Source: Escherichia coli
GTDB lineage: Bacteria > Pseudomonadota > Gammaproteobacteria > Enterobacterales > Enterobacteriaceae
Assembly (NCBI RefSeq): GCF_044324785.1
Contig: NZ_CP172127.1
DNA: 64,000 bases
Reading direction: 5' to 3' (one strand)
Positions 2,214 through 28,899 of this stretch are shown piece by piece (the stretch's first letter is position 1; every line of letters starts with the position of its first letter). The position numbers were made by a program, and so were the translations under genes. Below the pieces are notes generated by a model that saw only the letters and a list, made by a program, of their open reading frames with translations, was not told the origin of the DNA and did no database searches.

Positions 2214-5062
2214 TGACATTCTCGCTTTTCAGACGCCGTGAGGAAAAAGGTACAGCAGAGACCAGGGAACGACCGGAAGCAGAAGCGGGGGCATCTTCAT
2301 CGGCCTTTGTTCCGCCCTGTCCTCCGGGGGCACAGCCCCTGCGACGTCCGGGACAGATGACCCGTGATGCTGAGGCGGCGGTTTATCATGCCGGTCCGTC
2401 GGTTATTGATTTTCTGCCATGGGTGGAATATCTGGATGAGGAGCAGTGTCTGCTGCTTGACGACGGGGTGTCGGTGGGAGCGGTCTATTCGGTGACGCCG
2501 GCCGCAACGGAAGGGCGTACGGAAGAGCGCCTGGCGCAAATCAGGGACATGGTGGAGGATGCCCTCCAGGACAGTTTTGATGAGTACGACACGCATCCCT
2601 GGGTGGTGCAGTTCTACTGTCAGGATGAAAATGATGTGGATGCGTACCTGGACTATCTGAAGGGGTATGTGAAACCCCACGCGCAGGGAACGGCATTCAC
2701 GGAGGCCTGGCTGGGTGAAATGGCCCGCCATCTCAGGGGGATTGCCCGTCCTGAGGGACTGTTTACGGACACCCTGGTCACCGGTCAGCCCTGGCGGGGA
2801 CAGCAGCGACGAACCCGGATGGTGGTTTACCGTCGTATCGGGAAGAACAATAACGATCCGATGTCGCCGGTGGCGATGCTGAACCAGGTCTGCGACCGCG
2901 TGGTGTCCGCACTGGGTGGAGCCGGTATCCGCTGTACCCGGATGAACGGTCAGCAGGTGCACAGCTGGCTGCTGCGGTTATTTAATCCGGCACCGGACTG
3001 GATTGCCCGTGAAGAGCTGTACCGGATGGCCTCACGGGTTGATCCGCGTGAGCGTGGTGATGATGTGATGCCGGTGATGACGGATTTTGCCGAGAGCCTG
3101 TGGTTTAACCCGCCGTATTCCGATCCGGAGAACGGGGTGTGGTGGCTGGACGCCATGCCGCACTGTGCCGTGGTGGTGGAAAAGCTGCGTACGCCGCCGG
3201 AGCCGGGGACCATCACCGGAGAGATGCCCCGTGGGGAAAAAACGGTGAATGCGCTGATGGACACCTTTCCGGAGGGAACGGTGATGTGCATGACCATCGT
3301 GGTGCAGCCCCAGGACACCCTGGAGGACCGTTTCACCCGGCTGTCGAAAAATGCGGTGGGTGAGAACACGGAATCCATCCGGGCGCGTCAGGACGTGAAG
3401 GTGGTGAAGGAGCTGCTGGGGAACCGGCACAAGCTGTACCGGGCAGGGCTCACCTTTCTTCTGCGGGCAGAGGATATGGACAGCCTGAAACGCCGGCGTG
3501 TGGAGCTGACCACGGTGCTTCTGGGGGCTGGTCTGCAGCCGGTGCGGCCTGAGTTTGACGTGGGGCCGCTGAACAGCTGGCTGCGGGCGCTGCCGATGTG
3601 TTTTGATCCGGATACGGACAAAAAGCAGTGGTACACGCGTCTGATGTGGGTACAGCACATGGCAGGATTGTTGCCGGTGACCGGCCGGGATACGGGGACC
3701 GGACATCCGGGGTTCAGTTTTTTTAACCGGGGTGGTGATGTGCTGACTTTCGATCCGCTGAACAAGCTGGACCGTACCCAGAACGCGCATCTGCTGCTGT
3801 TCGGACCAACGGGGGCCGGTAAATCGGCCACGCTGTGTGCTTCACTGTCGCAGGTGATGGCAGTACACCGTCCCCGCCTGTTCATTGCCGAAGCGGGGAA
3901 CTCGTTTGGTCTGCTGGCCGATTATTTTGAGAGTCTCGGGCTGTCGGTGAACAAAATCAGCGTCAGACCGGGAACCGGTGTGACCCTGCCGCCGTTTGCA
4001 GATGCGCATAAACTGGTTGAGGAAGGGCAGGATCTGCAGTGCGTGGATGAGCACTCACTGCCTGATATTGAGGATGAAGCCGGGGATGAAGGGGAGGATA
4101 AACGAGACATTCTGGGCGAGATGGAAATCTCAGCCAGGATGATGATCACCGGGGGGGACCCGAAAGAAGAGGCCGCGCTGAAGCGTGCGGACAGGGCGAT
4201 GATCCGCGAGGCGCTGCTGATGGCCACACACCGGACATACCGTGAGGGGCGGCAGATGCTGCCGGAGGATTTGCAGTCCGCCCTGTGGGAGATCTCCCGT
4301 GACAGCAGCCGTAACGATGTGCGCAATGCAAAGGCGGCGGAGATGGCGGAGTCTCTGGGGATGTTCACCCAGAAGGGGAGTTTTGAGGCGGAGTTGTTCA
4401 ACCGCGAGGGCGAACTGTGGCCGGAAGCGGATGTGACGCTGATTGACCTGGGGCATCTGGCCCGTGAGGGGTATGAGGCACAGATGGCGCTGACCATGGT
4501 GTCGATGACCAACATGATCAATAACATTGCCGAACGTGATCAGTATCTGGGGCGTGACATCGTGTTTGCGGTGGATGAGGCGCATATCGTGACGGTCAAT
4601 CCGCTGCTTTCGCCGTACATGACGAAGGTTGTGAAGATGTGGCGTAAGCTGGGAGCGTGGCTGTGGCTGGCGACACAGAACCTGAAGGATTATCCGGATG
4701 TGTCGGAGAAGATGCTGAATATGGCGGAATGGTGGGTGTGTCTGACGATGCCACCGGAGGAAGTGAACAACATTGCACGCTTTAAATCACTGACGGAGGA
4801 GCAGAAAGCGGTGCTGATGTCGGCGAGTAAGCTGTCCGGCTGTTATACCGAAGGCGTGGTGCTGGCGAAGCAGATTGAGGCGCTGTTCCGTGCGGTGCCG
4901 CCAAGTCTCTATCTGGCGCTGGGCATGACGGAGAAGGAGGAGAAGGCTGAGCGGCGTATGCTGATGAAGGAACACCAGTGCAGCGAACTGGAGGCTGCGT
5001 TCCATGTGGCGCGTAAGCTGGACAGGCTGCGTGGTCTGTCGTCCATGGAGGCGGAGGTATGA
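2213..5062 (+). CDS. conjugative transfer ATPase, VirB4/TraC-like (PFL_4706-like)
   Basis: 949 aa; Walker A GPTGAGKS, Walker B-like FAVDEAH; size and context typical of T4SS VirB4. Confidence 0.9.
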   Translation: MTFSLFRRREEKGTAETRERPEAEAGASSSAFVPPCPPGAQPLRRPGQMTRDAEAAVYHAGPSVIDFLPWVEYLDEEQCLLLDDGVSVGAVYSVTPAATEGRTEERLAQIRDMVEDALQDSFDEYDTHPWVVQFYCQDENDVDAYLDYLKGYVKPHAQGTAFTEAWLGEMARHLRGIARPEGLFTDTLVTGQPWRGQQRRTRMVVYRRIGKNNNDPMSPVAMLNQVCDRVVSALGGAGIRCTRMNGQQVHSWLLRLFNPAPDWIAREELYRMASRVDPRERGDDVMPVMTDFAESLWFNPPYSDPENGVWWLDAMPHCAVVVEKLRTPPEPGTITGEMPRGEKTVNALMDTFPEGTVMCMTIVVQPQDTLEDRFTRLSKNAVGENTESIRARQDVKVVKELLGNRHKLYRAGLTFLLRAEDMDSLKRRRVELTTVLLGAGLQPVRPEFDVGPLNSWLRALPMCFDPDTDKKQWYTRLMWVQHMAGLLPVTGRDTGTGHPGFSFFNRGGDVLTFDPLNKLDRTQNAHLLLFGPTGAGKSATLCASLSQVMAVHRPRLFIAEAGNSFGLLADYFESLGLSVNKISVRPGTGVTLPPFADAHKLVEEGQDLQCVDEHSLPDIEDEAGDEGEDKRDILGEMEISARMMITGGDPKEEAALKRADRAMIREALLMATHRTYREGRQMLPEDLQSALWEISRDSSRNDVRNAKAAEMAESLGMFTQKGSFEAELFNREGELWPEADVTLIDLGHLAREGYEAQMALTMVSMTNMINNIAERDQYLGRDIVFAVDEAHIVTVNPLLSPYMTKVVKMWRKLGAWLWLATQNLKDYPDVSEKMLNMAEWWVCLTMPPEEVNNIARFKSLTEEQKAVLMSASKLSGCYTEGVVLAKQIEALFRAVPPSLYLALGMTEKEEKAERRMLMKEHQCSELEAAFHVARKLDRLRGLSSMEAEV

Positions 5063-6214: not shown

Positions 6215-7185
6215 TATCCCTGAAAGGTCGTCTGCGTGCCGGCGCGCTGTTACTGAGTGTGGCATCACTGCCTCTGGCGTCTGCGTCACTGAATACTGCC
6301 AGCATTATCGCCAGCGCGGCGGCACCGGACTGTATCAGCTGGCGTGTCAGCGGGATTTGTTACTGGCTTTACTGCAGCACGTTTGGCTGCAAGGTCCGAA
6401 CCTCCGTGAAGGTGACGCATTTCATCCCGGAAGTGGTTGTTTCCACCTATACGGCACCGGGTGGTAATCCCTGGAAAGAGATGTCGCTGGTCAGCCGGAC
6501 GGCAGGTGGCCCGGAGAATGCCATCACTGACGGTCTGTCGGGGCTGAGTGCAGGCGGGGGAAATCCGGCGGATATGAAAGCACAGGGGGAGCGGCGTTCA
6601 GCCATTCGCTTCAAATACGCAGATGCGCTGGGGCATCCGGCAACGAAGCTTATCGGCGGGATGGTGCCCGGATTCAGCTGTGATTCACCGGTGACGCCGG
6701 CCATGCCCTATTTCCTGAGTACCCTGGACAGCATCGTCTGGCGAACGGGATTACCTGAATCCCTGTATCCCGAAGCACTGGTTCCCGGCAAACGCGAGAT
6801 TGGCAGCCAGGCCGATAAAAACATGTGGGGGAGTGTTTATCCAAGAAGCGGTTTTGTGATGCAGACCGATGATGACCGGGCCGCGGCGGTGGTGGCCCAG
6901 CGGGTGGCCGACATTATCACGCGGACGGGGGAGCCGCATGTCTACAGGGAGGTGAAGGGCGTGAAACGTGACGGCTACTGGCCCCCGGAGGCGGTGGAGG
7001 AAAACACCGGCACCCGCAATCACAAATGGCAGCGACTGACGCCGTCAGTGTCGCGTTCCTGTGCCGTTTTCCCGGATGGTGAACACCAGGCAGCGGAGAA
7101 CGGTAATGCCGCCTTTGCACTGTGGCAGCCCTACAGTTGCTGCAAAAAGCGCGGGCAGCGATTCCTTGGCAGTACGAATTTTTAA
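6211..7185 (+). CDS. TraU-like / PFL_4710-like conjugal transfer protein
   Basis: 324 aa, signal peptide, cysteine-rich motif CISWRVSGICYWLYCSTFGC reminiscent of TraU. Confidence 0.6.
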   Translation: MISLKGRLRAGALLLSVASLPLASASLNTASIIASAAAPDCISWRVSGICYWLYCSTFGCKVRTSVKVTHFIPEVVVSTYTAPGGNPWKEMSLVSRTAGGPENAITDGLSGLSAGGGNPADMKAQGERRSAIRFKYADALGHPATKLIGGMVPGFSCDSPVTPAMPYFLSTLDSIVWRTGLPESLYPEALVPGKREIGSQADKNMWGSVYPRSGFVMQTDDDRAAAVVAQRVADIITRTGEPHVYREVKGVKRDGYWPPEAVEENTGTRNHKWQRLTPSVSRSCAVFPDGEHQAAENGNAAFALWQPYSCCKKRGQRFLGSTNF

Positions 7186-7191
7186 GGAACC

Positions 7192-8613
7192 ATGATGATG
7201 AAGATGAAAACAGGTGTGGTGGCACTGAGTGTGATGCTGTGCTGCAGTACTCCGGTGATGGCTGATCTTCTTTCCCTGCCGAAACTGAATGACAGCACGT
7301 TCGGTTACGGGAAATCCGTGGATGGCGCCGTATCTGACAAACTGTTCTATACGCTGGGTGGCGGCTCGGTGATCTCCCAGCCAGCCACGCGCAGCAACAT
7401 GCAGAAGCTGGGTATGGACCTGGGCTGGAGCAGCGATCTGATGTGCGGCAACTTTGACCTGAAGACCACGGTGGGTAATCAGCTTAACGGCGTGACCGAA
7501 GGTTTTAAAAATCTGATGGGGGATGTGATTCAGGGGGCGACCGGCGCCGTTGCCAGTCTGCCGGCGATGGTGATACAGCGTGCCAATCCCGGCCTGTACG
7601 ACATGATCACCAACGGTGTGCTGCAGGCGAATGTGGCTTTCGACAAGGCGCAACTGAACTGCCAGAACATGGCAAAACGGATGATGGACTTTTCTGATCG
7701 CAGCAAATGGACGCAGGCTGCGATGCTGGAAGAGTACAAGAAGGTGGTGAACAGCGGTGACGGCGATGCGGTGAAAGGGGATGAGGCCGGGCGTCAGGCC
7801 ACCGGGAAGGAGGGTAAGAAATGGATTGGCGGACAGCAGCGTGGCGGGGCAGGTCAGCCCGCCATCCGGCCGGTGCATGATCTGACAGCGGCCGGGTTTA
7901 ACATGATGAACGGTCTGCCCGTGACCAGTACGGCCAGCGTCAGTGCCGGCAACTGTAACGGCAGCGCCTGTGAGATGTTCCGGAATGCAGAAGAGGCCGC
8001 GAAGGCGGTGGTGAAGGTGCTGGGTGATCGTACCATGCGCACCTGTACGGATGCGAAGGCCTGTACCAGCGGGGATAATGAACAGCAGCAGGGAACCGTT
8101 GCAGGAACGGGGTTTGCGCCGGTGCTGGAAGAGGCGACCCGGGTGAACACGGAACAACTGGTCCGTCTGGTGAATGGTCAGGAGAAACCCACAGCGGAGA
8201 ATCTGGCAAAACTGAAAACCGGCAGTCTGGCTGTCTCTGCAGGGGTGATCAATGCCCTGCGTCGTGACCCGGACAATATGTCCCTGACATCGCGGCTGGC
8301 GGGAGAACTGGCGATGGCGCATACCGTGGAAACGGCTCTGGTGATGCGCAGAATGCTGCTCACCGGGATGTCTGAGCCGTATGCGGCCGCAGAAGATGCC
8401 GCGATTCAGGAAGGCGACCGGCGTATCGCTTCACTGGACAGGGAAATCATGGCGCTGAAGAACGAGATGGAGCTGAAACGCGATCTGGCACGTAACAGCG
8501 TGCTGACCATCATTGAACGCGACAATGAGCGCGTGGGCAGCAACCCGATGATCCAGCCTGCAGACAATACTGACAGTCGTGTCCGGGCACTGGAAACTCC
8601 GGACGGGGAGTAA
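7192..8613 (+). CDS. integrating conjugative element protein, PFL_4711-like
   Basis: 473 aa, signal peptide, C-terminal coiled coil; conserved position before TraG-N gene. Confidence 0.6.
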   Translation: MMMKMKTGVVALSVMLCCSTPVMADLLSLPKLNDSTFGYGKSVDGAVSDKLFYTLGGGSVISQPATRSNMQKLGMDLGWSSDLMCGNFDLKTTVGNQLNGVTEGFKNLMGDVIQGATGAVASLPAMVIQRANPGLYDMITNGVLQANVAFDKAQLNCQNMAKRMMDFSDRSKWTQAAMLEEYKKVVNSGDGDAVKGDEAGRQATGKEGKKWIGGQQRGGAGQPAIRPVHDLTAAGFNMMNGLPVTSTASVSAGNCNGSACEMFRNAEEAAKAVVKVLGDRTMRTCTDAKACTSGDNEQQQGTVAGTGFAPVLEEATRVNTEQLVRLVNGQEKPTAENLAKLKTGSLAVSAGVINALRRDPDNMSLTSRLAGELAMAHTVETALVMRRMLLTGMSEPYAAAEDAAIQEGDRRIASLDREIMALKNEMELKRDLARNSVLTIIERDNERVGSNPMIQPADNTDSRVRALETPDGE

Positions 8614-13996: not shown

Positions 13997-14160
13997 ATTA
14001 TCACCTTTTGTCTGACAGTTCATTTGTTGATGCTATCACGATATTCGCGATGCGGTAAATATATCAATATGTTGGTTTATTTGTGTAATACATTATTTCC
14101 CATATGCCATAAATCAGTCTGTTGACGATAGCTTTTTTCTTTTGTTATTCTGTTCCCGCA

Positions 14161-14470
14161 TTAACTGTCGCTTCGGCGACCACCAATGTTCCATGAGGCC
14201 TGTGAGGAACGCCTTCGGGTGGCCCATGTCGCTCCGGCGACCACCAATGTTCCATGTGGCCTGTGAGGAACGCCTTCGGGTGGCCCACGTCGCTCCGGCG
14301 ACCACCAATGCTCCATCTGACCAGTGAGGAGCGCCTTCGGGTGGTCAGTTTTACACCTCCGTAGCCTGAAAGGAGCTGTGCGTGCTGATGGGATATGTTT
14401 CCGGAAGTACGGGTAAATCTGCACACCTTTGCGAGCAGATGTCACCACGGTTTACGTGATGATGAAGGCA
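14161..14470. repeat. composite repeat copy 1: three tandem ~61-bp units (14166-14226, 14227-14287, 14288-14347) plus ~120-bp unique tail
   Basis: Directly visible; about 95 percent identical to copy at 16463-16773; each unit has GTCGC-TCCG-GCGAC hairpin and conserved GAGGAACGCCTTCGGGTGG core. Confidence 0.9.
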
Positions 14471-15074
14471 TTCCGGATTTCGTCCGGTACTTTTACTTTT
14501 TCTCAGCAGACTTTCATAAAAAATGCTTTATGGATCTGCGTCTTAACATATTTTCTGACTTTCCGCATAAGCTTCTTATGACTGTGCGCACGGCATAAGG
14601 CCATTTGAAATTTGGCCGCTTGCGTGTGTACGTGGAGTTTGAAGCAGTGCATGCGTCACTTTTGTCGGCGTTCACGCTGACAAAGTGACGCATGAACGTC
14701 GACTCAACGAACCCGCATAAACAGGCTCTTCACGGGATGTTTTTTAACATTTGAAGAAGTGACCTGACGTGATCGTTTTTTTTCAACTTCATTCTGTTTC
14801 GTAGTGACGTCTCTCCGGTAAAACTTCCGGAAAAACGTCAGTCAACAGAATATCATTGTTTTTTAAGGAGTTTAATGTAGTGAGATGCCGAATCGGCGAT
14901 ATATCTGACAGGCAGATATGTCGGGGGCGACCTTCAGAGGTACAGTTAATTCTGCGGCCGGTTAAACTAACCGGCTTGACACCCCGCAAAACCTGAACAC
15001 TTTGCGTTACCCTGACGCACAGGCACTCACTCACCGAAGGAACGTAACGAAGAACCGTGTCGTCAGGTGAAATG

Positions 15075-15123
15075 CAGATGAATTCTTCTGTTGTGTTCAC
15101 GGCACAACAGAAGAATTCATCTG
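15075..15123. promoter_or_regulatory. perfect 21-bp inverted repeat with 7-bp spacer, 52 bp upstream of recombinase start
   Basis: CAGATGAATTCTTCTGTTGTG - TTCACGG - CACAACAGAAGAATTCATCTG read directly. Confidence 0.5.
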
Positions 15124-15175
15124 TGTTGTGTGCTGCTGTTTTGTTTAGGTCATAGGTCATAAGGAGAATGTACAG

Positions 15176-16081
15176 ATGTCCAGACGTGAGAAATTGCTTA
15201 AAAAGGATCTGGTTGCTCATGTCCGAAAAGAAAAGGGGAGTTTTAAAAAGTTAAGTGACTATACAAGGATTATGCATCGATTCGCTGAAACGCTTGCTCG
15301 TCTGAATGTACAGATTAGTTCTGCTGCACAGTTAAAAGTTCGTCACATTGAATTATATATGAACAGCAGGACGGATGTATCAAAACGAACGAGAGAAAAT
15401 GAAATGTCAGCAATACGCGCGGTTTTACGTCAGGTTGGTAAGAATAAACTTGCCGATCCCAGCCATCCACGGCTGAGTAATAAAGCATTAGGTATTTCAG
15501 GTGAGAGTCGTAAAGGTACGAAAAGTCTGATTACAGACGATCGTTTTCGTGAAATTCTTCAGCGCATTGAACAAAAAGATAAAGGACTCGCTGCAACGGT
15601 TAAATTGTCGCGTTATCTTGGTCTGAGAAATGAGGAGGCCATTCAGTCCGCCAAATCGCTCAAAACATGGAAACAGGCATTAGAACGGGGAGATGAAAAA
15701 TTACGTGTTATTTTTGGTACGAAAGGCGGTCGTGAGAGAATGACCACGATTGTTGACAGAAATAATGTTATTGAGGCTGTTAATTATGCTATTAAATATG
15801 CCGGTGAGCATGACGGGCGATTAATCGACAGAGGTAATCTTAAGTCTGCAATGAATTATTATCTTAACTCATTGCGTCGTTATGGTGAAATGAAAGGCGG
15901 TGATGAGACACCACATAGTTTTCGTTACAGTTATGCCGCAAGTGCAATGAAATACCATATTATGAATGGTTACAGTTATCATGAAGCGCTTGCATTAACA
16001 TCTATGGATCTTGGTCACGGTGACGGCAGAGGACGTTATATCGAGCAGGTATATTGCCAGTTGTTAGGACATGAAGAATAG
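15176..16081 (+). CDS. tyrosine recombinase / phage-integrase-family protein
   Basis: 301 aa; SD AAGGAG; catalytic-type motifs R (LGLRNEE), HxxR (PHSFRYSYA), H...Y (LGHGDGRGRYIEQVY). Confidence 0.65.
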   Translation: MSRREKLLKKDLVAHVRKEKGSFKKLSDYTRIMHRFAETLARLNVQISSAAQLKVRHIELYMNSRTDVSKRTRENEMSAIRAVLRQVGKNKLADPSHPRLSNKALGISGESRKGTKSLITDDRFREILQRIEQKDKGLAATVKLSRYLGLRNEEAIQSAKSLKTWKQALERGDEKLRVIFGTKGGRERMTTIVDRNNVIEAVNYAIKYAGEHDGRLIDRGNLKSAMNYYLNSLRRYGEMKGGDETPHSFRYSYAASAMKYHIMNGYSYHEALALTSMDLGHGDGRGRYIEQVYCQLLGHEE

Positions 16082-16121
16082 CTGTTATTATATTGTAGCC
16101 ATTTTCTTAAAAGGGACCGTT

Positions 16122-16415
16122 ATGAGTGATTATATTTATATGACTATTACTTCTGTTAAAAGTATCACTGACAACTCTCCTTTCTGGTCTTATGATTTAG
16201 GTTATTATCTTTATTCAGGAAAACTTGTGTCTTTTTATTGTGAGGGCATGTCCAACGAATGGGATATGTGTTCTGCTATCGCGGATCATTTTGACGTTGT
16301 CGGAGATTTTTCTTTTGATGTTATTCGTAAGAAAAAAAGAACGCTGATACGTGGGAACTGCGTTTTTCTTTTTGAACAACCCTTTCCGGGAGCGTATAAA
16401 ATACCGCTTTACTGA
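16122..16415 (+). CDS. hypothetical protein co-transcribed with recombinase
   Basis: 97 aa from ATG with SD AAAGGGA; AT-rich. Confidence 0.4.
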   Translation: MSDYIYMTITSVKSITDNSPFWSYDLGYYLYSGKLVSFYCEGMSNEWDMCSAIADHFDVVGDFSFDVIRKKKRTLIRGNCVFLFEQPFPGAYKIPLY

Positions 16416-16462
16416 ATTTTTTTGTTGTTCTTCCACGTAGTTTGTGCTTACAATTTAAACGC

Positions 16463-16773
16463 TAACTTGTCGCTTCGGCGACCACCAATGTTCCATGTGG
16501 CCTGTGAGGAACGCCTTCGGGTGGCCCATGTCGCTCCGGCGACCACCAATGTTCCATGTGGCCTGTGAGGAACGCCTTCGGGTGGCCCACGTCGCTCCGG
16601 CGACCACCAATGCTTCATCTGACCTGTGAGGAGCGCCTTCGGGTGGTCAGTTTTACACCTCCTGAGCCTGAAAGGAGCTGTGCGTACTGAAGGGATATGT
16701 TTCCGGAAGTACGGGCAAATCTGCACACCTTTGAGAGCAGATGTCACTGCGGTTTTCCGTGATGATGAAGGCT
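16463..16773. repeat. composite repeat copy 2 (same orientation as copy 1)
   Basis: Same three-unit tandem structure and tail as 14161-14470. Confidence 0.9.
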
Positions 16774-16901
16774 TTTTTATCACTGTATGACCTGAGTTAT
16801 CTCTGGTCCTTAAGCACATCGTGTTATCGCATTGATGTGTTCACCTGACGGATTTTCCAGTCCGTCAGGGCGGAACGTCCGTCTTTTATCCGGAGGTTCC
16901 A

Positions 16902-17303
16902 ATGTTTATTCCACTTCTGTTTCGCGCAGAGATGCGCCTGACACCTTTCTTTCAGCGACTCAGACAACGTCTGTGTTATCCGGTGAGTCGTGTTCATACA
17001 CAACATCCCTGGTCTTCTCCACAGTTGCGGCACCTTTACTGCACGCCGTGGTTTGTTAACGCCACCGGCAATCTTGCACTCCGTGCCTGCATTGTTTCCA
17101 TTGACGGTTCTTTGCGACACTGCTTTGAGTTCCGTGAAGGCTCTCACAGCCGTGAATACCGTTTCTGGTTTGAGGCGCTTCCTTTGTCGGTACTGCGTTT
17201 TAACACTTTTACCGGTCGAATATCCGATCGCCGTACACTCTCTGCTGCCTCCCGTATGGCCGCGCAGCTTACTTCCTTTCGCTATCGCTTCGGTTTGCGC
17301 TGA
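16902..17303 (+). CDS. hypothetical protein (leading-region-like array)
   Basis: 133 aa, SD GGAGG upstream. Confidence 0.4.
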   Translation: MFIPLLFRAEMRLTPFFQRLRQRLCYPVSRVHTQHPWSSPQLRHLYCTPWFVNATGNLALRACIVSIDGSLRHCFEFREGSHSREYRFWFEALPLSVLRFNTFTGRISDRRTLSAASRMAAQLTSFRYRFGLR

Positions 17304-17455
17304 AGCTGTTTGAGGTCGTTATGACAGTCATTTTCTCTACGAGCAGCGTTGTCTGATCGCGCCATTCAGAACGCGATGACAAAGCTGATTTTTCCTTAAC
17401 CCGTCCGGGACCGCTTCCGTTCGGGGAACGGTCTCTCTGTTTCTGGAGATTGTTT

Positions 17456-17842
17456 ATGGGACTCGATATTTTTTTCCTTGGGCGTGATCGTGTTTGTGTT
17501 ACCGACGCAGTGGTATCGGTACCGGAAACGCGGGAAGTGGGGTACTTTCGCAAGGTTAACCCACTGATTGCCTGGTTTGAGAAGCATTGTGGACCGCTTG
17601 AAAATGCCGTGGAGCGTCCGGTTTCCAGAACGGAACTGGAGGCACTACTGAGCGATCTTGAATGCCTTACGCCGGAGAACTGCCGGGAATTCTTCCCCAC
17701 AACAGAAGGATTCTTTTTTGGCTCTCAGGAGTATGACCAGTATTACTGGAAGGATGTTGAGGACGTGAAGTCGTGGGTCAGAAGCACGCTTGATTCGTTT
17801 GATTTTGAACGAAAAATACTGTTGCTCTGGGCATGGTGGTAA
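17456..17842 (+). CDS. hypothetical protein (leading-region-like array)
   Basis: about 128 aa, SD GGAGA upstream. Confidence 0.4.
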   Translation: MGLDIFFLGRDRVCVTDAVVSVPETREVGYFRKVNPLIAWFEKHCGPLENAVERPVSRTELEALLSDLECLTPENCREFFPTTEGFFFGSQEYDQYYWKDVEDVKSWVRSTLDSFDFERKILLLWAWW

Positions 17843-17928
17843 CTATTTCTCAGTCCTTGTTTTTAACCATGTGATTATTCGCAGAAGCCCGACTTCTCTG
17901 GCCTGCTTTTATTCCGGAGAATGAGATT

Positions 17929-18177
17929 ATGCAAATAAGTGCAGAAACTCGCGCTGTTTTACGTCACTACAGACAGATCATTAACGCCAGACGGCGTGAA
18001 GATGGCATGAAAGCTCTCAGCACGCCGCAAATCGTTGATGAGATCTGTGAGTTTATGCTCAGCCAGCCAGCAGTGTATCTGGGGGGGGCAGTTCATCATG
18101 CAGAAGGCCAGAACAAGATAGCTGTCTTTGTTCATGGCTTTTCAACAGACCGTTATGCTTTCGCCACCACATGGTAA
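17929..18177 (+). CDS. hypothetical small protein
   Basis: 82 aa with SD GGAGAA. Confidence 0.35.
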   Translation: MQISAETRAVLRHYRQIINARRREDGMKALSTPQIVDEICEFMLSQPAVYLGGAVHHAEGQNKIAVFVHGFSTDRYAFATTW

Positions 18178-18261
18178 GGCGGGTCTGATTTTACTGTTAA
18201 CCGTACGGTTCACTCTCATACCGTACGGTGGGAGTGAACCCTTTTCATTAAGGACACTCTC

Positions 18262-18771
18262 ATGAAAACGAAAACTTCTGCACCTGCTGTATATGTTGGT
18301 ACCTGGGCTAAATACAACAATGGCAGCATAGAAGGATGCTGGTTTAATGATTTAACCGTTTTTGAAACTGAAAGCGATTTTTTATCTGCGGCCCGTAAGT
18401 TTCATCAGGATGAAAAAGATCCTGAATTTATGTACCAGGATTATGAAAACTTTCCTTCGGGAATGGCTTCAGAATATGGTTTCAACTGGGCTTATGTTGA
18501 AGGTTATCGTCTTGCCCGTGAAGAAGGCTGTGAAGATGCATGGTATGCATGGGTTTCTAATACCGGTGATACCTGTTTCGAACAGTTCAGGGAGGCGTGG
18601 CTTGGTGGTCCTTATGACAGTGAACTCGAGTTCGCCGCGCAGTACGTGGATGAATGCGGTTTTCTGTCAGAGGTACCTGATACTGTTGCACGCTATTTTG
18701 ATTATGAGGCTTTTGCGCGCGATTTGTTCATGGAACTGGATTTTGTCGACGGACACGTTTTCCATCGGTAA
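18262..18771 (+). CDS. ardA: antirestriction protein ArdA (DNA-mimic inhibitor of type I restriction)
   Basis: 169 aa, very acidic; N-terminal AVYVGTWAKYNNGSIEGCWF and C-terminal YFDYEAFARDL motifs match ArdA family as recalled (e.g. Tn916 Orf18, ColIb ArdA). Confidence 0.8.
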   Translation: MKTKTSAPAVYVGTWAKYNNGSIEGCWFNDLTVFETESDFLSAARKFHQDEKDPEFMYQDYENFPSGMASEYGFNWAYVEGYRLAREEGCEDAWYAWVSNTGDTCFEQFREAWLGGPYDSELEFAAQYVDECGFLSEVPDTVARYFDYEAFARDLFMELDFVDGHVFHR

Positions 18772-21340: not shown

Positions 21341-21366
21341 GCGCCACATTTTGTGGCGCTTTTTTA
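21341..21366. terminator. hairpin terminator between convergent genes
   Basis: GCGCCAC-ATTTT-GTGGCGC then T-run. Confidence 0.5.
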
Positions 21367-21412
21367 ATAAATCAGTGATGGCAGAGTTGTTATTGTAAAT
21401 AACTCTCCGTGT

Positions 21413-24328
21413 TTACTGAGTCAGTTTTTTTATCAGGTCGTGAATTTTATCACCTGAAAACTGGGTCATGAAAGTTATCTTTATGGATTTACTGATTTGT
21501 TCGAAGAGTTTCTGTGCATGTTTTATTTTATCGCGTTCTTCATGTCTGAGTTCACGTTTGCCATCAACATTTTTGGTTTCAATAATAAGGTTCAGATAAT
21601 CACCCTTTGACGTGTTTACAACATAAGCGAAGTCAGGGGAGTAAGTGTATCCTCCCGCTACAGGAATTTTTATTGAATTTTTGGGGATCTTTGTGAAGAC
21701 AATGACTGACCTGACCTCACCCTCTGTCATATTGAGTTTTTCAAGTTCTGAATCATAAAATACTTCTTCAAAAAGATAAGAGTCCAGTGGAGGGCTTGTA
21801 TTATCCTGTAAAACGCCAAGATCACTTGACAATACATCAGCAAGATAACCGCCGTCTGCATTGGTGAATTTCGTGGGATGGACAGTTCCTGATATTACAT
21901 TATACCCAAGGCTGAATTTACTGAACGAGTTATTAAGCAAATACTTGCTGAAACCAGATTTAATTTTTCTGATTGTCTGAATGTTAAGGTATTCAGTTAT
22001 ATTTATGATGTCTTTTATATCACAAAAAACCTTATGCATGGTGTCATGTTTGACAAAAATAGTCTGTGATAATTTATCAAGGAATTCACGATAGCTCATT
22101 GTGTTTATTTTGTGAAAATTATCCTCATCAACACTGAGAATGCTTTTCGACATTGCCGTATCATTATGGATATAAATTCTTTCAATACGAGTATGAGCAC
22201 CGGATTTGGTAAATCTGTCTGCTTCTTCCAGCATAAACGCTCTGAAAAGGGATAAAAACTCACGTTCACTTTTTATTTTATACTCAATCACGACCTTTTG
22301 ATTGATCAAGTCCCATAGTTCTTTCAGCTCACTGAACTTACCAACACGCATTTTAGTGCGTCTTTTTCCATCAGAGGCTTTTTTTATTTTGCCTGGTTTC
22401 ACTCCTGCAGGAAATGCTGCCGGATATCTGGCTTTTAAGCGGCTATAGGCATCTGAATCTTTGAAGTTATCATTATCATCAATGATCTCATCACCAAAAA
22501 TTTCATTCAAGAGTGTTCTGGAGGAAAGCTCCGGATATTGAGACAGGATTTTATCCTTAAGCTCCTGAGTAAACTTACCTGGAACAGTCTCTTTGAAAGA
22601 ACTATCGTTGATCTCTTTGACAAGAGAATCGACAAAATCTTTTTCTGTAAAATCAACATAATAGTTGAGGGTAAAATTGCGGTCTTTCACACGACACATG
22701 TATTCATTCACCGGAAGACGTAAACCACGCCCTACTTCCTGAAGTTTAGATGTGGTGCTACCGCTCGAACGGAGCTTACAAATCTGAAAGACATTTGGGT
22801 TATCCCATCCCTCACGCAACGTCCATTTAGAGAAAATGAAACGGCGAGGATTTTCTAAAGACAATAGAAGCTCTTTATCATGAAGGATTTCGTTGATTTC
22901 CTGCTCAATTTTATCATCTTTATCACTATTATCTTTTGAAAAATAACCACCATGAACAGAAGATATATCCTTAACAGTTTTTTCAAGGTAGTTTCTGTAA
23001 AACTCATCTTTTTCTGTTTTTAACAGTTCATTTGCTTCTGCCAAAACGTATTCTTCGAACTTAGTTTTCAGGCTTCCTGCAATATCATTACCATCACGAT
23101 AGCCTTCAATGTCATCAATGAAGAAAAGAGTAAGAGGTTTTATGCGTGGCCTTTGTGTCAGATACTCTTTTTCTAACTTAAAGTGTTCTTTGACAGCTTT
23201 ACGTATCATGTTATCAGCAAGTGTCTGATCGTAAGAATAGGGGTTTATCGAACTACCAATTTTTAGCTCAATACCATTACTCAACACTGCTGTATTCTTA
23301 TTTAAAGCATCAAGAGTTAAATCATGGATCGCACTATGCGTCTTAGATAGTGATTCACCTTTGGCTAACTTAAAAATTTTTTTATTATTATTTTCGTTCA
23401 GTTCAAATGTAGCTTCTTTTCCGTCAGATTTGACCAACTTGAGGTTGGCATTACCATCACCAACTATATCCTCAATGTATGCATCAATACCTTTAACAAG
23501 ATCTTCATTGAAGGCATCTACGGCTGTAAGACGATAAACTAAGTTCTTATAGCCTTCACTAAAGGTTGCACCATAGCGGATGATATATTGGGCATTAAAT
23601 TTTTGAATATGTTCCCATGTCTTTTTACCAGTAGGAAATTTATGAGGCTCATCAATGATAATGAATGGTTTTATCGCACTAAGTGCAGAAAATGGGGTAT
23701 CAAACTGATTATTAAGCAAGCCAACATCATAAGTGTCAGTTAAAGACTTAGAGTTAATCATCCCTGAATTGATCACAAGAATGTGTATATATTTCTTATT
23801 GAAATTACTTGCTTCAACAAAATCATGGATAGCTTGAGGTATATACGATTTTGTATTTTTACCCGAACGTTTCTGACTTTCAACAACGTAAGTCTTTAGT
23901 TCACGCTCGTAATCATCTCGAAAGTGTTCTTTTATAGCATCGCTTTTTAAAAAGTTAACGGTTCCGGCTTTGATCGATAGGGTAGGAACAATGATGATAA
24001 ACTTGTTAATACCAAATGATTTGTTCAGGTCAAAAATTGTTTTGGTGTAAGTATAAGTTTTACCTGTACCTGTCTCCATAGAAACATCAATTACGTTGCT
24101 TTTAGCATCGTAATTATCTTTTGAGTGCTCAATACCATTGAACTCCTGAACATTTTTTATGTTGTTGTAGTATTGTTGTTCAGATAGATTCAGTTCTGGA
24201 TTAGCTAACAGGCGAATTGCAACATGATCCGTCTGATGAGGTATGGCGGATACAAAGACATTCATTACCGAATCAACGCCAGCCTTTTGATGAGGTAAAT
24301 TTTTTTCGAATGTGAACCCTTTAGACAT
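21413..24328 (-). CDS. res: Type III restriction endonuclease, Res subunit
   Basis: 971 aa; helicase motifs METGTGKTYT and IIIDEPH; C-terminal PD-(D/E)xK-like region; size typical of EcoP15I-like Res; AT-rich. Confidence 0.85.
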   Translation of the reverse strand: MSKGFTFEKNLPHQKAGVDSVMNVFVSAIPHQTDHVAIRLLANPELNLSEQQYYNNIKNVQEFNGIEHSKDNYDAKSNVIDVSMETGTGKTYTYTKTIFDLNKSFGINKFIIIVPTLSIKAGTVNFLKSDAIKEHFRDDYERELKTYVVESQKRSGKNTKSYIPQAIHDFVEASNFNKKYIHILVINSGMINSKSLTDTYDVGLLNNQFDTPFSALSAIKPFIIIDEPHKFPTGKKTWEHIQKFNAQYIIRYGATFSEGYKNLVYRLTAVDAFNEDLVKGIDAYIEDIVGDGNANLKLVKSDGKEATFELNENNNKKIFKLAKGESLSKTHSAIHDLTLDALNKNTAVLSNGIELKIGSSINPYSYDQTLADNMIRKAVKEHFKLEKEYLTQRPRIKPLTLFFIDDIEGYRDGNDIAGSLKTKFEEYVLAEANELLKTEKDEFYRNYLEKTVKDISSVHGGYFSKDNSDKDDKIEQEINEILHDKELLLSLENPRRFIFSKWTLREGWDNPNVFQICKLRSSGSTTSKLQEVGRGLRLPVNEYMCRVKDRNFTLNYYVDFTEKDFVDSLVKEINDSSFKETVPGKFTQELKDKILSQYPELSSRTLLNEIFGDEIIDDNDNFKDSDAYSRLKARYPAAFPAGVKPGKIKKASDGKRRTKMRVGKFSELKELWDLINQKVVIEYKIKSEREFLSLFRAFMLEEADRFTKSGAHTRIERIYIHNDTAMSKSILSVDEDNFHKINTMSYREFLDKLSQTIFVKHDTMHKVFCDIKDIINITEYLNIQTIRKIKSGFSKYLLNNSFSKFSLGYNVISGTVHPTKFTNADGGYLADVLSSDLGVLQDNTSPPLDSYLFEEVFYDSELEKLNMTEGEVRSVIVFTKIPKNSIKIPVAGGYTYSPDFAYVVNTSKGDYLNLIIETKNVDGKRELRHEERDKIKHAQKLFEQISKSIKITFMTQFSGDKIHDLIKKLTQ

Positions 24329-24330
24329 GA

Positions 24331-26367
24331 TTAGTTCCTTACCACCAAATCTAAATCAATAGATTTTTTATTAGCATAACTTTTTAGTGCTTCATTGAGT
24401 TCCATCTGTTTCGCACTTTCGAAGTTGCTGCCATAAAATACAACTTTGTTAGGGGCAAAGTCTTTGTCTGCATCCAGCTTTTGAAGTAAAGCTTTCAAAG
24501 CCTCACTTGTGAAATTAGGCGCAATTAGATATAGCCGACCATCGCACAAGTGTGCTTTGTAGCCATTAAGGTCAATATCTTCAATTGGTGTTGTTAGCAA
24601 GCTGCCATCATACACGCACCATGTCGTCAATAGAGTGTCATACTGCTCTGGTGTCAATACAGCATCGTCAAAGAAACTAAGATTAGAAAGCGTAAGTTCA
24701 GACTCATCTTTCACTCGAAAATCATGAACTGTTTCAAATATTTTAAATCCCAAATCTCCATTATAATTAGGATTATCTTTTTTCAGCTTTTTTCCTGCCT
24801 TAATAATTCTGTCTTTTGTTATATTGAAGATGGATTTATACCCTTCTTTATAGGCTTGTTTCTTTTTATCTGTTTCTTCATCTAATTGAACACAGATGAA
24901 GTTTCTTTTCCTGCCGTCTTCAATATTTAACTCCAGAATACCATGAGCTGTAGTTCCAGAGCCAGCAAAAAAGTCAAGATAAATGTCTTTATCTTCGGTT
25001 TTTACTGAACCAAATAGTGTTTTTATTAAACTTGTTGGCTTCGGGTAGGAGAAATATCCTTTCCCACCAAAAAGATTTTCAACCTCAACACCACCATCAC
25101 TTTTAGTTGAAATAATTGATCTTAGTAAAAACTCTTCAACTTCATCTAAAAATTTAACCGAACTGGGTTGGGTGTTTTCTGTACTGGCAAACCAAATTCC
25201 ACCACAAATAACGCTACCATCATGTAGTTTTTTGATATCTGCATACTTTCCATCTATTCTTTTTGCAATATGATTAAAAGTGCCTTCTTTCCAACGCCAG
25301 CCTCTGTCTGGGATTTTGACAGGGTTATTAGTCAAAGGGTGCAATACTTCATACGTGGGTCCAAATGAATCTGCATTAGGCCAGCTCATATTAATTTTAC
25401 CCCATGGCCTATAATCTTCGTTCAAACAGTTGTAAAGAGTAATTCCACGATCATATCCGTTGGAGCTGTAGAATTTTTTGAGTTGCTGCTCTGCTTTATC
25501 TAATGGCACCTTCTCCTTTTTTAACTTTTCAATAAACTGATATACATCATCAATACCATCTTTCCGCATTAAAAATTCTTTACTTATTTCGTTATTCTTC
25601 GCATAAGCAAGGATGTACTCATGGATATTACCAATACCCTTATCATTTTTAGGGATACGTTTATTCCATACAATATTTTCTATGAAATTTGCTTCGCCAA
25701 AAATTTCATCACAAATAGTTTTAAGTTGATTTAATTCATTTTCGTCAATCGAAATAAATATCACACCATCTTCACGTAGAAGCTCACGAGCAATATATAA
25801 ACGAGGATAAATGAACGTTAACCATGCGCTATGGCTGCTTGAACCATTCGTGGTAAATTCAAGTATACGTTTAGCCTCATCAAGATCGATACCTGCCAGA
25901 TCAGAAAGCTGTTCAGGTGTAAACTTGCGATCATCGTTATAGGCGAATCCATCCTTACCTGTATTGTATGGTGGATCAATGTAAATCATCTTCACCTTTT
26001 CAGAGTAAGCATTAACCATATGCTTCAATACTTCGAGGTTATCCCCTTTGATTAACAGATTCTGACTGTTTTTGTTCTCTTCACGTTGGTTATGGTCTTT
26101 ATCTTCGGAGAGTAATGTCTTCGGCGGCAAGTTAGCTAACAGACGGGCATAGGATTTACCAAGCCAGTTCAGGCTGTATGATTCTTTGGAGAGTTCAACA
26201 TCCGATGATTTGACGATTTCAAGCAATTTTTCCTGAATGAACGCTCCATTTTTATCAAAACACTGTGGAAAGTTAGCCTTTAAAATCGCAAGCTGTTTAC
26301 TGTTTGTGGTTTCAGTTTCAGAGAAAAGAGTTTCTTTTTTCAGTTGAAATTGGGGTTGTGTATTCAT
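24331..26367 (-). CDS. mod: Type III DNA methyltransferase, Mod subunit (N6-adenine, beta-class)
   Basis: 678 aa; motif IV IYIDPPYN precedes motif I FFAGSGTT; own SD GGAGG 6 nt before ATG; immediately upstream of res. Confidence 0.85.
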   Translation of the reverse strand: MNTQPQFQLKKETLFSETETTNSKQLAILKANFPQCFDKNGAFIQEKLLEIVKSSDVELSKESYSLNWLGKSYARLLANLPPKTLLSEDKDHNQREENKNSQNLLIKGDNLEVLKHMVNAYSEKVKMIYIDPPYNTGKDGFAYNDDRKFTPEQLSDLAGIDLDEAKRILEFTTNGSSSHSAWLTFIYPRLYIARELLREDGVIFISIDENELNQLKTICDEIFGEANFIENIVWNKRIPKNDKGIGNIHEYILAYAKNNEISKEFLMRKDGIDDVYQFIEKLKKEKVPLDKAEQQLKKFYSSNGYDRGITLYNCLNEDYRPWGKINMSWPNADSFGPTYEVLHPLTNNPVKIPDRGWRWKEGTFNHIAKRIDGKYADIKKLHDGSVICGGIWFASTENTQPSSVKFLDEVEEFLLRSIISTKSDGGVEVENLFGGKGYFSYPKPTSLIKTLFGSVKTEDKDIYLDFFAGSGTTAHGILELNIEDGRKRNFICVQLDEETDKKKQAYKEGYKSIFNITKDRIIKAGKKLKKDNPNYNGDLGFKIFETVHDFRVKDESELTLSNLSFFDDAVLTPEQYDTLLTTWCVYDGSLLTTPIEDIDLNGYKAHLCDGRLYLIAPNFTSEALKALLQKLDADKDFAPNKVVFYGSNFESAKQMELNEALKSYANKKSIDLDLVVRN

Positions 26368-26581
26368 AACGCACCTCCAGAATGCACGGAGGTACTTGAC
26401 GCGGAATTTTTATACAGGCATATTGTTGCGTTGCGTTGCGTTGCGTTGCGTTGCGTTGCGTTGCGTTGCGTTGCGTTGCGTTGCGTTGCGTTGCGTTGCG
26501 TTGCGTTGCGTTGCGTTGCGTTGCGTTGCGTTGCGTTGCGTTGCGTTGCGTTGCGTTGCGTTGCGTTGCGTTGCGTTTCAT
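26318..26581 (-). CDS. leader ORF containing the pentanucleotide tract; encodes (RNATQ)x10; overlaps mod start by 49 nt in current frame
   Basis: ATG at 26581 with SD GAGG; ORF reads through repeat and ends at 26318 inside mod. Confidence 0.4.
   Translation of the reverse strand: MKRNATQRNATQRNATQRNATQRNATQRNATQRNATQRNATQRNATQRNATQQYACIKIPRQVPPCILEVRYEYTTPISTEKRNSFL
26426..26575. repeat. pentanucleotide simple-sequence repeat (TTGCG)x30 on + strand (CGCAA on mod strand)
   Basis: 30 perfect tandem units counted directly. Confidence 0.95.
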
Positions 26582-26614
26582 TAAATAGCCTCGAGTTTCG
26601 TTTTACAGGTTTTT

Positions 26615-26643
26615 ATTCTAACCTGAATTGTTGATTTTCTGAA
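26615..26643 (-). promoter_or_regulatory. candidate sigma70 promoter for leader-mod-res
   Basis: -35 TTCAGA and -10 TAGAAT with 17-bp spacing on minus strand, about 30 nt upstream of leader ATG. Confidence 0.35.
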
Positions 26644-26661
26644 TAAGTCTGACGTCAGTTG

Positions 26662-26830
26662 TTACGGGAAGGTATCAGAGTGGCTAGATGCACTGTGGCA
26701 CGTCTCATGGCGGTTATGGGGCTTGCCGGCGTTCTCCGGGGGGTAAAGCTCCGTGCTACTGTCACCTGGAACGCCGTTGCCGCAGGCGACCGCGTAAACC
26801 GTCTGTACCGCCCGGGCCCAATATTAAGAA
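26662..26830 (+). pseudogene. short remnant resembling IS3-family transposase OrfB N-terminal region
   Basis: translation VARCTVARLMAVMGLAGVLRGVKLRATV...DRVNRLY resembles the RxxVARLMRxxGL pattern of IS3-family OrfB; GC-rich patch in AT-rich context. Confidence 0.3.
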
Positions 26831-26858
26831 CTAACGTCATACCAGGGACGTTGTCTGA

Positions 26859-27872
26859 ATGGATGAGAAGCTAAAACATGCGGATTTATCGTCTTTGCCA
26901 GAGCAGGTGAGGGTTGCCGCTAGGGAGCTTGTTGACCTGAAGTTTCGTATCGATATGGCAGCAAGAGGCGGTACGTCAGGGATACCACTTGACCTGCATG
27001 GGAGGATGACAGGAGGAGAATGGGGGCCGCATTGCGGGCTGGAATTTTTCTGCAGCATCATTCCTTTTTTCCCGCGAGATTTTGAAACCTGTTCAGTAAC
27101 TGAAATGTTGGTTCCTACCTTACATACCTTCGGCTGCAACTGGCGTTGGTGGCCCGATCGTTATTGTAGCGACAAAGATGAACACTATATACGGCGTCAC
27201 ATTTTTTCTGATTACGGGCTGAAAAGTACGAGCTATACCTTCATTCCTCAGTTGGGATTGTTCTGCCCGAGTGAAGGTAAAAATCGTGTTAACTTCTGCC
27301 GCCATCACGGTATCGAATATATCCCCGCACAGGTTTATTCCCATGATTACCCAGAAGCAAATCGAATCTCTGTGTACGTTCAGGATACTGCCGGAGGGCT
27401 GGATGTGTGGGCCGTTCTTGATAATCGCTATGTTCAGAAGGTTACTCACTATGCCTTTGCGCTCCCACTTTTGTGCGCTTATGGGGTAGAGTTCCCAGGT
27501 AAGTGGCCAGCAGGATGGCCATCGATATCGGACCTCCTGGCTAATCAACTGTGTTGCACTGATGACACAACCTTTCATAAACCCGTGATCGATATGCAAG
27601 CTGTCAGGGATACGCTGGATCGTGATGAGAACAGCAGAGAGGATGGGGAGATGTATGTCAAAACCAATGTGGTTGAGCTGCCGCTGGCCGGGCTGGTTCG
27701 CTTCATTCTGATCGCAATGTTACTGAGTTTAGGTGCGTTGTTCATCCACGAGGTACTGGATGAGGGAAGCCTGTCCAGGATTGCACTGGGAATAAGCACT
27801 TTCACGGCTGGCGTGGTTGCTTCGTTTTTTATCCCAGCGTTCCGTATCAAGAAAAAATATCTTCGCAAATAG
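26859..27872 (+). CDS. hypothetical protein with C-terminal double TM anchor
   Basis: 337 aa; Cys/Trp-rich soluble domain then two hydrophobic helices; no family recognised. Confidence 0.45.
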   Translation: MDEKLKHADLSSLPEQVRVAARELVDLKFRIDMAARGGTSGIPLDLHGRMTGGEWGPHCGLEFFCSIIPFFPRDFETCSVTEMLVPTLHTFGCNWRWWPDRYCSDKDEHYIRRHIFSDYGLKSTSYTFIPQLGLFCPSEGKNRVNFCRHHGIEYIPAQVYSHDYPEANRISVYVQDTAGGLDVWAVLDNRYVQKVTHYAFALPLLCAYGVEFPGKWPAGWPSISDLLANQLCCTDDTTFHKPVIDMQAVRDTLDRDENSREDGEMYVKTNVVELPLAGLVRFILIAMLLSLGALFIHEVLDEGSLSRIALGISTFTAGVVASFFIPAFRIKKKYLRK

Positions 27873-28012
27873 TTGTGGCATTTCTTGAACACTTTTTCGA
27901 GACAGGTTCAACCGCAGGCATTCAGGCCAAACATGCGGTTAAACTACGTATTCAATTAACTGCCCTAAATATGGCTAAGCGCCCGGACGATATGTCTGTC
28001 TGCACCTAGGTG

Positions 28013-28142
28013 GAAATTACACCCTCTAAAGGGAGCTGATCTTAGAGGTCATTGGGAAATATCAGTAAACTCTAACTGGCGAATTACCTTTCGATTTGAA
28101 GGCGAAGACGCAATTCTGGTTGACTATCAGGATTATCATTGA
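28013..28142 (+). pseudogene. higB/RelE-like toxin, C-terminal fragment only
   Basis: KGADLRGHWEISVNSNWRITFRFEGEDAILVDYQDYH matches HigB C-terminal consensus; N-terminus absent (in-frame stop upstream). Confidence 0.5.
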
Positions 28143-28204
28143 GGGATAACTGAACCGCCCCGGGAATCCTGGAGACTAAACTCCCTGATAAAGAGGTAAA
28201 CAGA

Positions 28205-28853: not shown

Positions 28854-28899
28854 GTTCACAGATAAAACACTCTCCAGGAAACCCGGGGCGGTTCAAACT

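Follow-up and report, generated by a model that had tools for sequence, protein, structure and literature searches.

A PF12834/PF12835 tyrosine recombinase gene behind a STAXI-EFASI leader belongs to the conserved backbone of MOB_H/MPF_G conjugative elements in Enterobacterales

Two structured motifs, STAXI and EFASI, have been described in the neighbourhood of integrase genes. The name STAXI stands for 'Ssbp, Topoisomerase, Antirestriction, XerDC Integrase' (Weinberg 2010, PMC2864571), and EFASI for 'Enterobacteriaceae, frequently around STAXI and integrases', with a position given as several hundred bases 3' of STAXI and 5' of integrase genes (quoted in PMC12370729). Here we describe a locus of this kind in a 64,000-nucleotide stretch of Escherichia coli contig NZ_CP172127.1 (referred to as the window, to which all unlabelled coordinates belong), where a tyrosine recombinase gene, int (15176-16081, + strand, 301 amino acids), lies between two STAXI repeats inside an integrative and conjugative element (ICE). 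The linkage between repeats and integrase was already published in 2010 and 2017, and the locus is not a new kind of system; tandem pseudoknot units, EFASI and integrase follow each other in the published order, with antirestriction genes nearby, and nothing essential differs, while the EFASI found here falls under the cut-off (46.3 vs 51.2 bits). What is new relative to the published motifs is that the integrase belongs to PF12834/PF12835, that it has a fixed place in MOB_H/MPF_G elements, and that STAXI behaves as a generic operon head. A literature search for functional studies of PF12835/PF12834, EFASI or ICEPm1 found none.

Several better known systems resemble this locus in part. Cre/loxP of phage P1 and ResD/rfsF of plasmid F are simple tyrosine recombinase systems that resolve multimers, and int shares with them a two-domain protein without an arm-binding domain, an element capable of existing as a circle or plasmid, and a palindrome beside the gene; it differs from them in lacking detectable sequence similarity to solved recombinases and in having a palindrome that is not family-wide. 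The integron recombinase IntI recombines attC sites as folded single strands, and int is likewise a tyrosine recombinase beside structured repeats that bound variable cargo. Unlike attC sites, however, STAXI repeats stand upstream of operons, on the sense strand, in two or three copies per locus and with conserved multigene content, and no presence/absence polymorphism was found around int. Plasmid leading regions carry CUP repeats (IncN) or the Frpo and ssi single-strand promoters (F, ColIb-P9), which the present locus recalls through its dispersed co-oriented repeats ahead of antirestriction- and ssb-type genes on a conjugative element, but STAXI units are small pseudoknots and not long promoter-bearing hairpins. 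Moreover, neither STAXI nor EFASI was matched in 18 kb of the F plasmid leading region, even at E<=1, and STAXI as an Frpo-type single-strand promoter was rejected on this ground.

The host element of int has the features of a MOB_H/MPF_G ICE, with TIGR037xx ICE genes, TraG_N, a TraI_2 relaxase and a boundary integrase by a tRNA; gene identities were taken from Pfam contexts and from the RefSeq annotation of the near-identical element in E. coli TUM9803, which is closely related to the strain of the window but distinct from it. The tRNA is found at 49876-49948 and the boundary integrase adjoins tRNA-Phe, about 34 kb from int. An initial annotation of this locus had described int as lying away from the island boundary and as a third recombinase besides the island integrase and rci, and both points are borne out, as the element also carries an rci-like shufflon recombinase and the tRNA-Phe boundary integrase. 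The description of the gene as an 'orphan' has to be given up, since MOB_H/MPF_G elements from many genera have it at one fixed syntenic position. Two E. coli strains, A19 and UMNK88, carry int behind the TIGR037xx/TraG_N mating-pair genes, at the head of a co-oriented block that includes ArdC, DUF1281 and an N6 methylase, and the equivalent block in TUM1886 and YZLc1-3 contains ArdA, LPD29 and DUF1281. In a compact Salmonella ICE the int block continues to the TraI_2 relaxase and the boundary integrase, and on plasmid pEB102 (MOB_H, MPF_G) rep is followed, at about 2.5 kb, by int and then by ArdC, DUF1281, the methylase and UvrD. Clustering of all flanking open reading frames (ORFs) at 83 loci gave the same synteny across genera. 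Thus, int is a conserved backbone gene of Enterobacterales MOB_H/MPF_G elements (ICEs and a few plasmids), located between the transfer genes and the antirestriction block. Among 5,426 complete E. coli genomes, 693 had matches to the PF12834/PF12835 family, and a one-genome-per-species collection gave 332 matching stretches; homologues are rare on plasmids (52/72,556) and essentially absent from phages.

Linkage to the repeats was assessed in these loci, drawn from 80 loci of one-genome-per-species contigs and several E. coli loci, with motifs placed by nhmmer. STAXI was found 5' of int in 61 of the 77 loci with enough flank, at a constant distance of about 630-820 nucleotides (nt) from its end to the start codon, and EFASI was found 5' of int in 67 of 83 loci, 50-175 nt away. 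A second STAXI lies 3' of int within 3 kb in 43 of 75 loci, and within 200 nt in 21. The conservation of the gene with flanking repeats, which the initial annotation had proposed as a check and whose complete absence would have spoken against it, is therefore seen both upstream and downstream. All 118 STAXI copies are on the int strand, and the recurring co-oriented order is STAXI, a leader of about 0.7 kb with EFASI, int, optional cargo, and STAXI. STAXI, EFASI and int are thus one conserved module, and the fixed place of int in MOB_H/MPF_G elements is reported here for the first time. Erwinia oleae DAPP-PG531 carries at least five separate STAXI-bearing int loci in one genome (L003, L014, L027, L035 and L039), an indication that many elements reside together or that the module has been amplified. 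At another locus (L093, 2042-3016), a Rep_1 (PF01446) rolling-circle replication gene replaces the usual ORFs 5' of the STAXI-EFASI-int leader.

The protein encoded by int matches Phage_int_SAM_2 (PF12834) at residues 8-93 (E 2.5e-23, model positions 4-91 of 91) and Integrase_1 (PF12835) at residues 106-255 (E 5.1e-56, model positions 1-148 of 149). A protein database search yielded 1,721 clusters of relatives at 90% identity; the best 120 of these are about 250-345 amino acids (aa) long, mostly about 300, every one has both PF12834 and PF12835, and the entries with a named source among them are from Enterobacterales. In an alignment of 27 homologues with 49-85% identity, R151, K183, H247, R250, H281, Y288 and Y293 are invariant, with R151 in GLRxEE, K183 on a beta-hairpin (FGTKGGR), H247 and R250 in HSxRY, and H281 in LGHGDGRG. 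The catalytic-type motifs claimed for the protein are therefore present as an invariant R-K-H-R-H-Y set, and neither the arginines nor the tyrosines are missing on alignment, as would be expected had the assignment been wrong. The candidate nucleophiles are Y288 and Y293, of which Y293 fits the 'QIY' motif of XerD.

An AlphaFold (AF2) model of the protein has a predicted local distance difference test score (pLDDT) of 89.8 and shows the helical core-binding domain and the catalytic domain that define the tyrosine recombinase superfamily. Foldseek against the PDB matched both domains to XerA, lambda Int(75-356), Tn1549 Int, XerH and Cre (probability 1.00, TM 0.53-0.60, about 290-340 columns); further matches were MrpR, YopR and SroF. 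The heterobivalent arm-binding domain of lambda-type integrases is absent, since the Pfam match begins at residue 8 and lambda Int is matched only from its residue 75, and the protein is as short and as devoid of an arm-binding N-domain as had been noted initially. At the sequence level, phmmer and profile searches against solved recombinase structures gave no match, and an hhalign comparison with XerD, which brought the HxxR and LGH boxes into register, had a low probability of 11.7%. Neighbours in AFDB50 were all uncharacterised, and searches of NCBIfam, PHROGs and PADLOC with int, the 97-aa ORF that follows it and their neighbours gave essentially no annotation. The ratio of nonsynonymous to synonymous substitution rates (dN/dS) against an 85%-identical E. 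coli allele is 0.076, and a frameshift was seen in int of one relative; int is a working gene under strong purifying selection. As judged from its sequence and model, it encodes an intact two-domain Cre/Xer-type tyrosine recombinase of the uncharacterised PF12834/PF12835 family, with predicted activity.

The twin repeats between which int had been placed are confirmed at 14166-14472 (STAXI-1) and 16468-16775 (STAXI-2), both on the + strand. They are direct repeats of about 310 nt that are 96% identical, where no such match is expected by chance, and each consists of 2.9 copies of a 61-nt unit, so that STAXI-1 reads as three 61-nt pseudoknot units and a tail. With Rfam RF01728 scores of 68.6 and 61.9 bits in STAXI-1 and 68.6 and 66.3 bits in STAXI-2, all four matches lie well over the gathering score of 40.5. 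For covariation, 44 units from more than 30 loci were aligned and compared with 500 shuffles and with slid controls. Pairing was found in 97.6% of cells, compared to 80.5% in shuffles and 26-55% in slid controls, and none of the 500 shuffles reached the observed values; 14 of 18 pairs were changed on both sides, and all four helices covary, including the pseudoknot helix. One G.U pair is conserved in 43 of the 44 units, and because the opposite strand would carry A.C mismatches at this position, the folded strand is the sense strand of int. These are the marks of a structured single strand, most simply RNA, rather than of a duplex recombinase site.

The genes headed by STAXI are not restricted to int, which is the most frequent (65 cases, about 686 nt upstream). 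The next commonest is a family of 114-133-aa ORFs (20 cases, about 116 nt), the same family that follows STAXI-2 here, where the repeat lies about 125 nt from the ORF at 16902-17303; STAXI was also found ahead of ArdC and several other small ORFs, with distances to genes other than int of about 100-350 nt. STAXI therefore behaves as a generic operon head in these elements, with STAXI-2 leading the next operon, and the suggestion that the repeats imply a dedicated recombinase substrate nearby is not supported, as they are STAXI motifs with covariation that also head other operons. Copies are more alike within a locus than between loci (median similarity 0.63 vs 0.25), with within-locus values dropping to 0.4-0.5 in, e.g., Photorhabdus, and the 96% identity of the twins in the window looks like local homogenisation. 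The number of 61-nt units varies among near-identical elements, as STAXI of the TUM1886 type (L082, copies at 4211-4456 and 7006-7252) is one unit (60-61 nt) shorter.

The region between STAXI-1 and int has the anatomy of a structured leader. Directly 5' of STAXI-1, and outside the repeated sequence, a consensus scan identified a promoter-like site (14122-14151, TTGACG-18-TATTCT with TG), and at the end of STAXI-1 a small G+C hairpin followed by a T-rich run (14473-14487) may act as a terminator. These are followed by a block (14521-14661) that is conserved in loci with a very different int allele (88.7-96.8% identity to L082 and L083 by blastn), a hairpin with 17-nt arms and apical GTTCACG, HP1 (14650-14694), which was read from the sequence and is paired in the RNA fold, an EFASI-like motif (14878-15031; Rfam RF02957, 46.3 bits, E 3.6e-7), a second hairpin, HP2 (15075-15123), and a Shine-Dalgarno sequence, AAGGAG, read at 15161-15166, all on the + strand. 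The EFASI-like match came from a relaxed Rfam scan, covers the full model (1-133 of 133) and is in the canonical position between STAXI and integrase. The 718 nt from STAXI-1 to the start codon fold at -270.8 kcal/mol, compared to -197.3 +/- 7.4 kcal/mol for shuffled sequences (z = -9.9). Plasmid matches to 14500-15080 were remnants of islands beside insertion sequence (IS) elements and were uninformative. Taken together, the roughly 1 kb ahead of int is exceptionally structured on the sense strand, with STAXI, the conserved block, HP1, EFASI, HP2 and the Shine-Dalgarno sequence in succession, and would act as an RNA leader with attenuator-like hairpins.

HP2 has perfect 21-nt arms, a 7-nt loop (TTCACGG) and a T-rich tail, which make it terminator- or attenuator-like, and lies 52 nt 5' of the int start codon. 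It is present in a single copy in the window, and no second copy was found elsewhere in the element. Similar long hairpins occupy the same place in 18 distinct leaders, and most homologues have a short hairpin or none. Between alleles the stems show compensatory changes and stay symmetric, with about 10% G.U by RNA folding, including an internal G.U pair in the equivalent stem of L054. On account of these wobble pairs, HP2 as a DNA-only palindrome was rejected, and it is treated here as part of the RNA leader, with a lox-like function kept as a rival. The apical sequence GTTCAC(G/A) is common to HP1, HP2 and the HP2 equivalents of L024, L036, L045 and L054 on otherwise unrelated stems, which suggests a loop-recognition element.

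Between int and STAXI-2 lies a 97-aa ORF (16122-16415, + strand, GC 0.357), annotated as hypothetical in RefSeq, which had been taken for a small co-oriented, AT-rich partner of the recombinase. The ORF does exist on the same strand; as a partner of the family it fails, as 21 loci have no room for it and others carry unrelated cargo. No match to it was found in Pfam-type, PHROG, NCBIfam or PADLOC searches, and a word-indexed search for relatives returned only its own cluster; direct comparison showed that the 85%-identical int allele (L084/L085) is followed by a homologue of the ORF with 46% identity. As far as these comparisons indicate, the ORF is conserved only in the nearest clade and is evolving much faster than int, and for this reason it does not resemble a dedicated cofactor. 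The slot from int to the next STAXI measures 53-62 nt in many loci (53-200 nt in the 21 loci mentioned) and elsewhere extends over 0.2-1.6 kb, with low-GC genes that are unrelated to each other and lie on either strand, among them those for a ParD-like antitoxin, resolvase fragments and a PIN-like protein. In TUM1886 (L082, 6109-6849, - strand) the slot after the alternative int holds, on the opposite strand, a gene for a 246-aa 'zinc-finger-containing protein' in which about 90 residues at the N-terminus are similar to the core-binding domain (Phage_int_SAM_2) of the int family; the gene is split in YZLc1-3 (L083), where one piece is annotated 'phage integrase N-terminal domain'.

Overall, we consider it probable, with some reserve, that int is a functional backbone recombinase of MOB_H/MPF_G elements behind an RNA leader, and that the twin repeats are operon punctuation. 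By this account int opens the co-oriented block behind the mating-pair genes (TraG_N), which continues by way of small ORFs to ArdA/ArdB/ArdC, DUF1281, an orphan methylase and UvrD and then to the TraI relaxase and the boundary integrase, and the second twin is the STAXI leader of the next operon. The enzyme itself may resolve multimeric or tandem forms of the excised, plasmid-like element, as Cre and ResD do; this role is proposed by analogy and only tentatively. Resolution is favoured over integration because of the simple Cre/Xer-type architecture without an arm-binding domain, because plasmid forms such as pEB102 keep int, and because distant homologues adjoin parA/rep on non-mobilizable plasmids of 8-14 kb. 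Excised elements of this ICE family lead a plasmid-like life, which was also counted for resolution.

Several observations weigh against this account. No recombination site and no rearrangement attributable to int were found among the loci compared, and HP2, the only lox-like candidate, is missing from most homologous leaders and tolerates G.U as an RNA hairpin would. The EFASI-like motif scores below the Rfam gathering score (46.3 vs 51.2 bits), and the one piece of transcription support for the leader is the detection of STAXI and EFASI in vesicles by reverse transcription quantitative PCR, as reported in PMC12370729. On the small plasmids, the distant homologue is accompanied by another, ordinary tyrosine recombinase, and this one could be the resolvase of these plasmids. 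Finally, a subfamily 48-51% identical to int has a second genomic context, with EFASI and without STAXI, 0.5-3 kb from P4-type integrases at island ends (tRNA-Asn, tRNA-Phe and tmRNA), which fits a role in integration or excision equally well.

This island-end subfamily is the starting point for regarding int as an accessory recombinase that partners or modulates the boundary integrase, e.g., as an XerC/XerD-like partner or a directionality factor, and the compact Salmonella ICE, where int shares one co-oriented block with TraI and the boundary integrase, agrees with it. In the window, however, the two recombinases are about 34 kb apart, int is kept by plasmid forms that do not integrate, and related Pseudomonas-type elements were not among the int homologues found, so that we regard such a role as unlikely. 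The lox-like reading of HP2, in which its 21-bp arms and 7-bp spacer would be the core site at which int resolves dimers of the excised element, is marginally better placed, although we still doubt it. The sites loxP, rox and vox consist of two identical inverted arms and a short asymmetric spacer next to the recombinase gene, and HP2 has this architecture; its arms differ between alleles yet remain symmetric, its single copy per element is what a resolution site would have, and it lies within the swapped int module. Against it stand the restriction of long palindromes to 18 distinct leaders, the G.U pairs, by which the DNA arms are not strictly identical and behave as an RNA hairpin, and the fact that HP2 also scores as a terminator-like hairpin.

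The initial annotation had named cassette excision among the possible functions, with excision or inversion of 14161-16773 as a check, and in an attC-like version of this idea the STAXI copies, possibly as folded single-stranded DNA, would be the recombination sites at which int and its cargo are excised or exchanged. Co-oriented STAXI repeats do flank int in most ICE-type loci, they are more alike within loci and near-identical in some, including the window, low-GC cargo of various kinds occupies the slot from int to the next STAXI, and a single-stranded DNA role for STAXI has been raised before (Weinberg 2010, PMC2864571). Synthetic junctions lacking the int segment were searched in E. coli genomes with a matching query, and a deleted form was found in 0 of 71 genomes for this allele and 0 of 67 for the 85%-identical allele; all 10 contexts sampled through the downstream protein retain the int segment and the 97-aa ORF with unchanged spacing. 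Exchange does occur, as the sister element in TUM1886 has a backbone 95-99% identical to that of the window together with different cargo and an int allele that is only 41% identical, but the left breakpoint (14661) is 190 nt past STAXI-1 and not within it, and the right one (16439) is 29 nt before STAXI-2. Hence, int modules get exchanged, but not at the repeats. Moreover, twins in many loci are only 0.4-0.5 alike, STAXI heads operons without int, in two or three copies per locus with multigene content and no single-gene cassette arrays, the island-end subfamily has int and EFASI without STAXI, and the UUCG loops speak for RNA, as do the pseudoknot and the conserved G.U. On these comparisons the segment between the twins is not an excisable cassette, and the twins are better read as operon punctuation than as enzyme substrates; the attC-like version is, in our view, very unlikely. 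An integron platform was likewise rejected, given two or three STAXI per locus ahead of conserved multigene units and a segment retained in all comparisons. No more credible is the idea that the protein has a recombinase fold but serves as a regulator that binds DNA without catalysis, as the SPbeta repressors MrpR and YopR do: the Foldseek matches to these proteins and to SroF and the name 'DNA-binding protein' in many database entries would agree with it, but a pure repressor would not need six invariant catalytic-type residues, two candidate tyrosines included, and purifying selection is strong. The least probable proposal considered, and a highly speculative one, is that PF12834/PF12835 recombinases act on folded single strands (STAXI or leader hairpins) during or just after conjugative transfer; if this were true, the int-STAXI slot would be an integron-like site of cargo capture in ICEs, which would explain both its diverse low-GC content and the swaps of int modules between near-identical backbones.

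Apart from the functional backbone recombinase favoured here, a number of features of the element and its relatives were recorded. Downstream of STAXI-2, a co-oriented block (16902-18771, + strand) comprises the 133-aa ORF (16902-17303), a 130-aa ORF (phrog_7971), an 82-aa ORF and ArdA (18262-18771). A 527-nt segment by pilV and the rci-like gene (34070-34596) is inverted relative to TUM9803 at 99.2% identity, which is direct evidence of shufflon flipping between strains. About 8.4 kb of the window (21365-29790), partly of very low GC (0.35 at 22-26 kb), is without an equivalent in the element of TUM9803, and iha, which in TUM9803 lies between conjugative ATPase/acetyltransferase genes and a TIGR03757 gene, is missing from the window. 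The ICE also carries a gene for a type B (zinc-independent, YkgM-like) ribosomal protein L31 (11856-12179), which is found as well in plasmid-borne island remnants, beside urease genes. In E. coli YZLc1-3 (L083, 13392-15457), a sister ICE has ISApl1 and mcr-1.1 inserted beside traF; therefore, the element family moves colistin resistance on the chromosome. In Escherichia whittamii (L063, 7771-14190), about 4.3 kb with a P4-type integrase and two ORFs is enclosed by a convergent pair of EFASI-int copies that have 51% and 45% identity to the query, and the flanks are inverted duplicates, an arrangement that may represent two head-to-head islands or an invertible segment.

The family to which int belongs is large, is under strong purifying selection and has a fixed place in conjugative islands that carry virulence and resistance genes, with a sister element that bears mcr-1. 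With the cassette-excision reading removed, fewer experiments are needed to establish the role of this third recombinase of the ICE.

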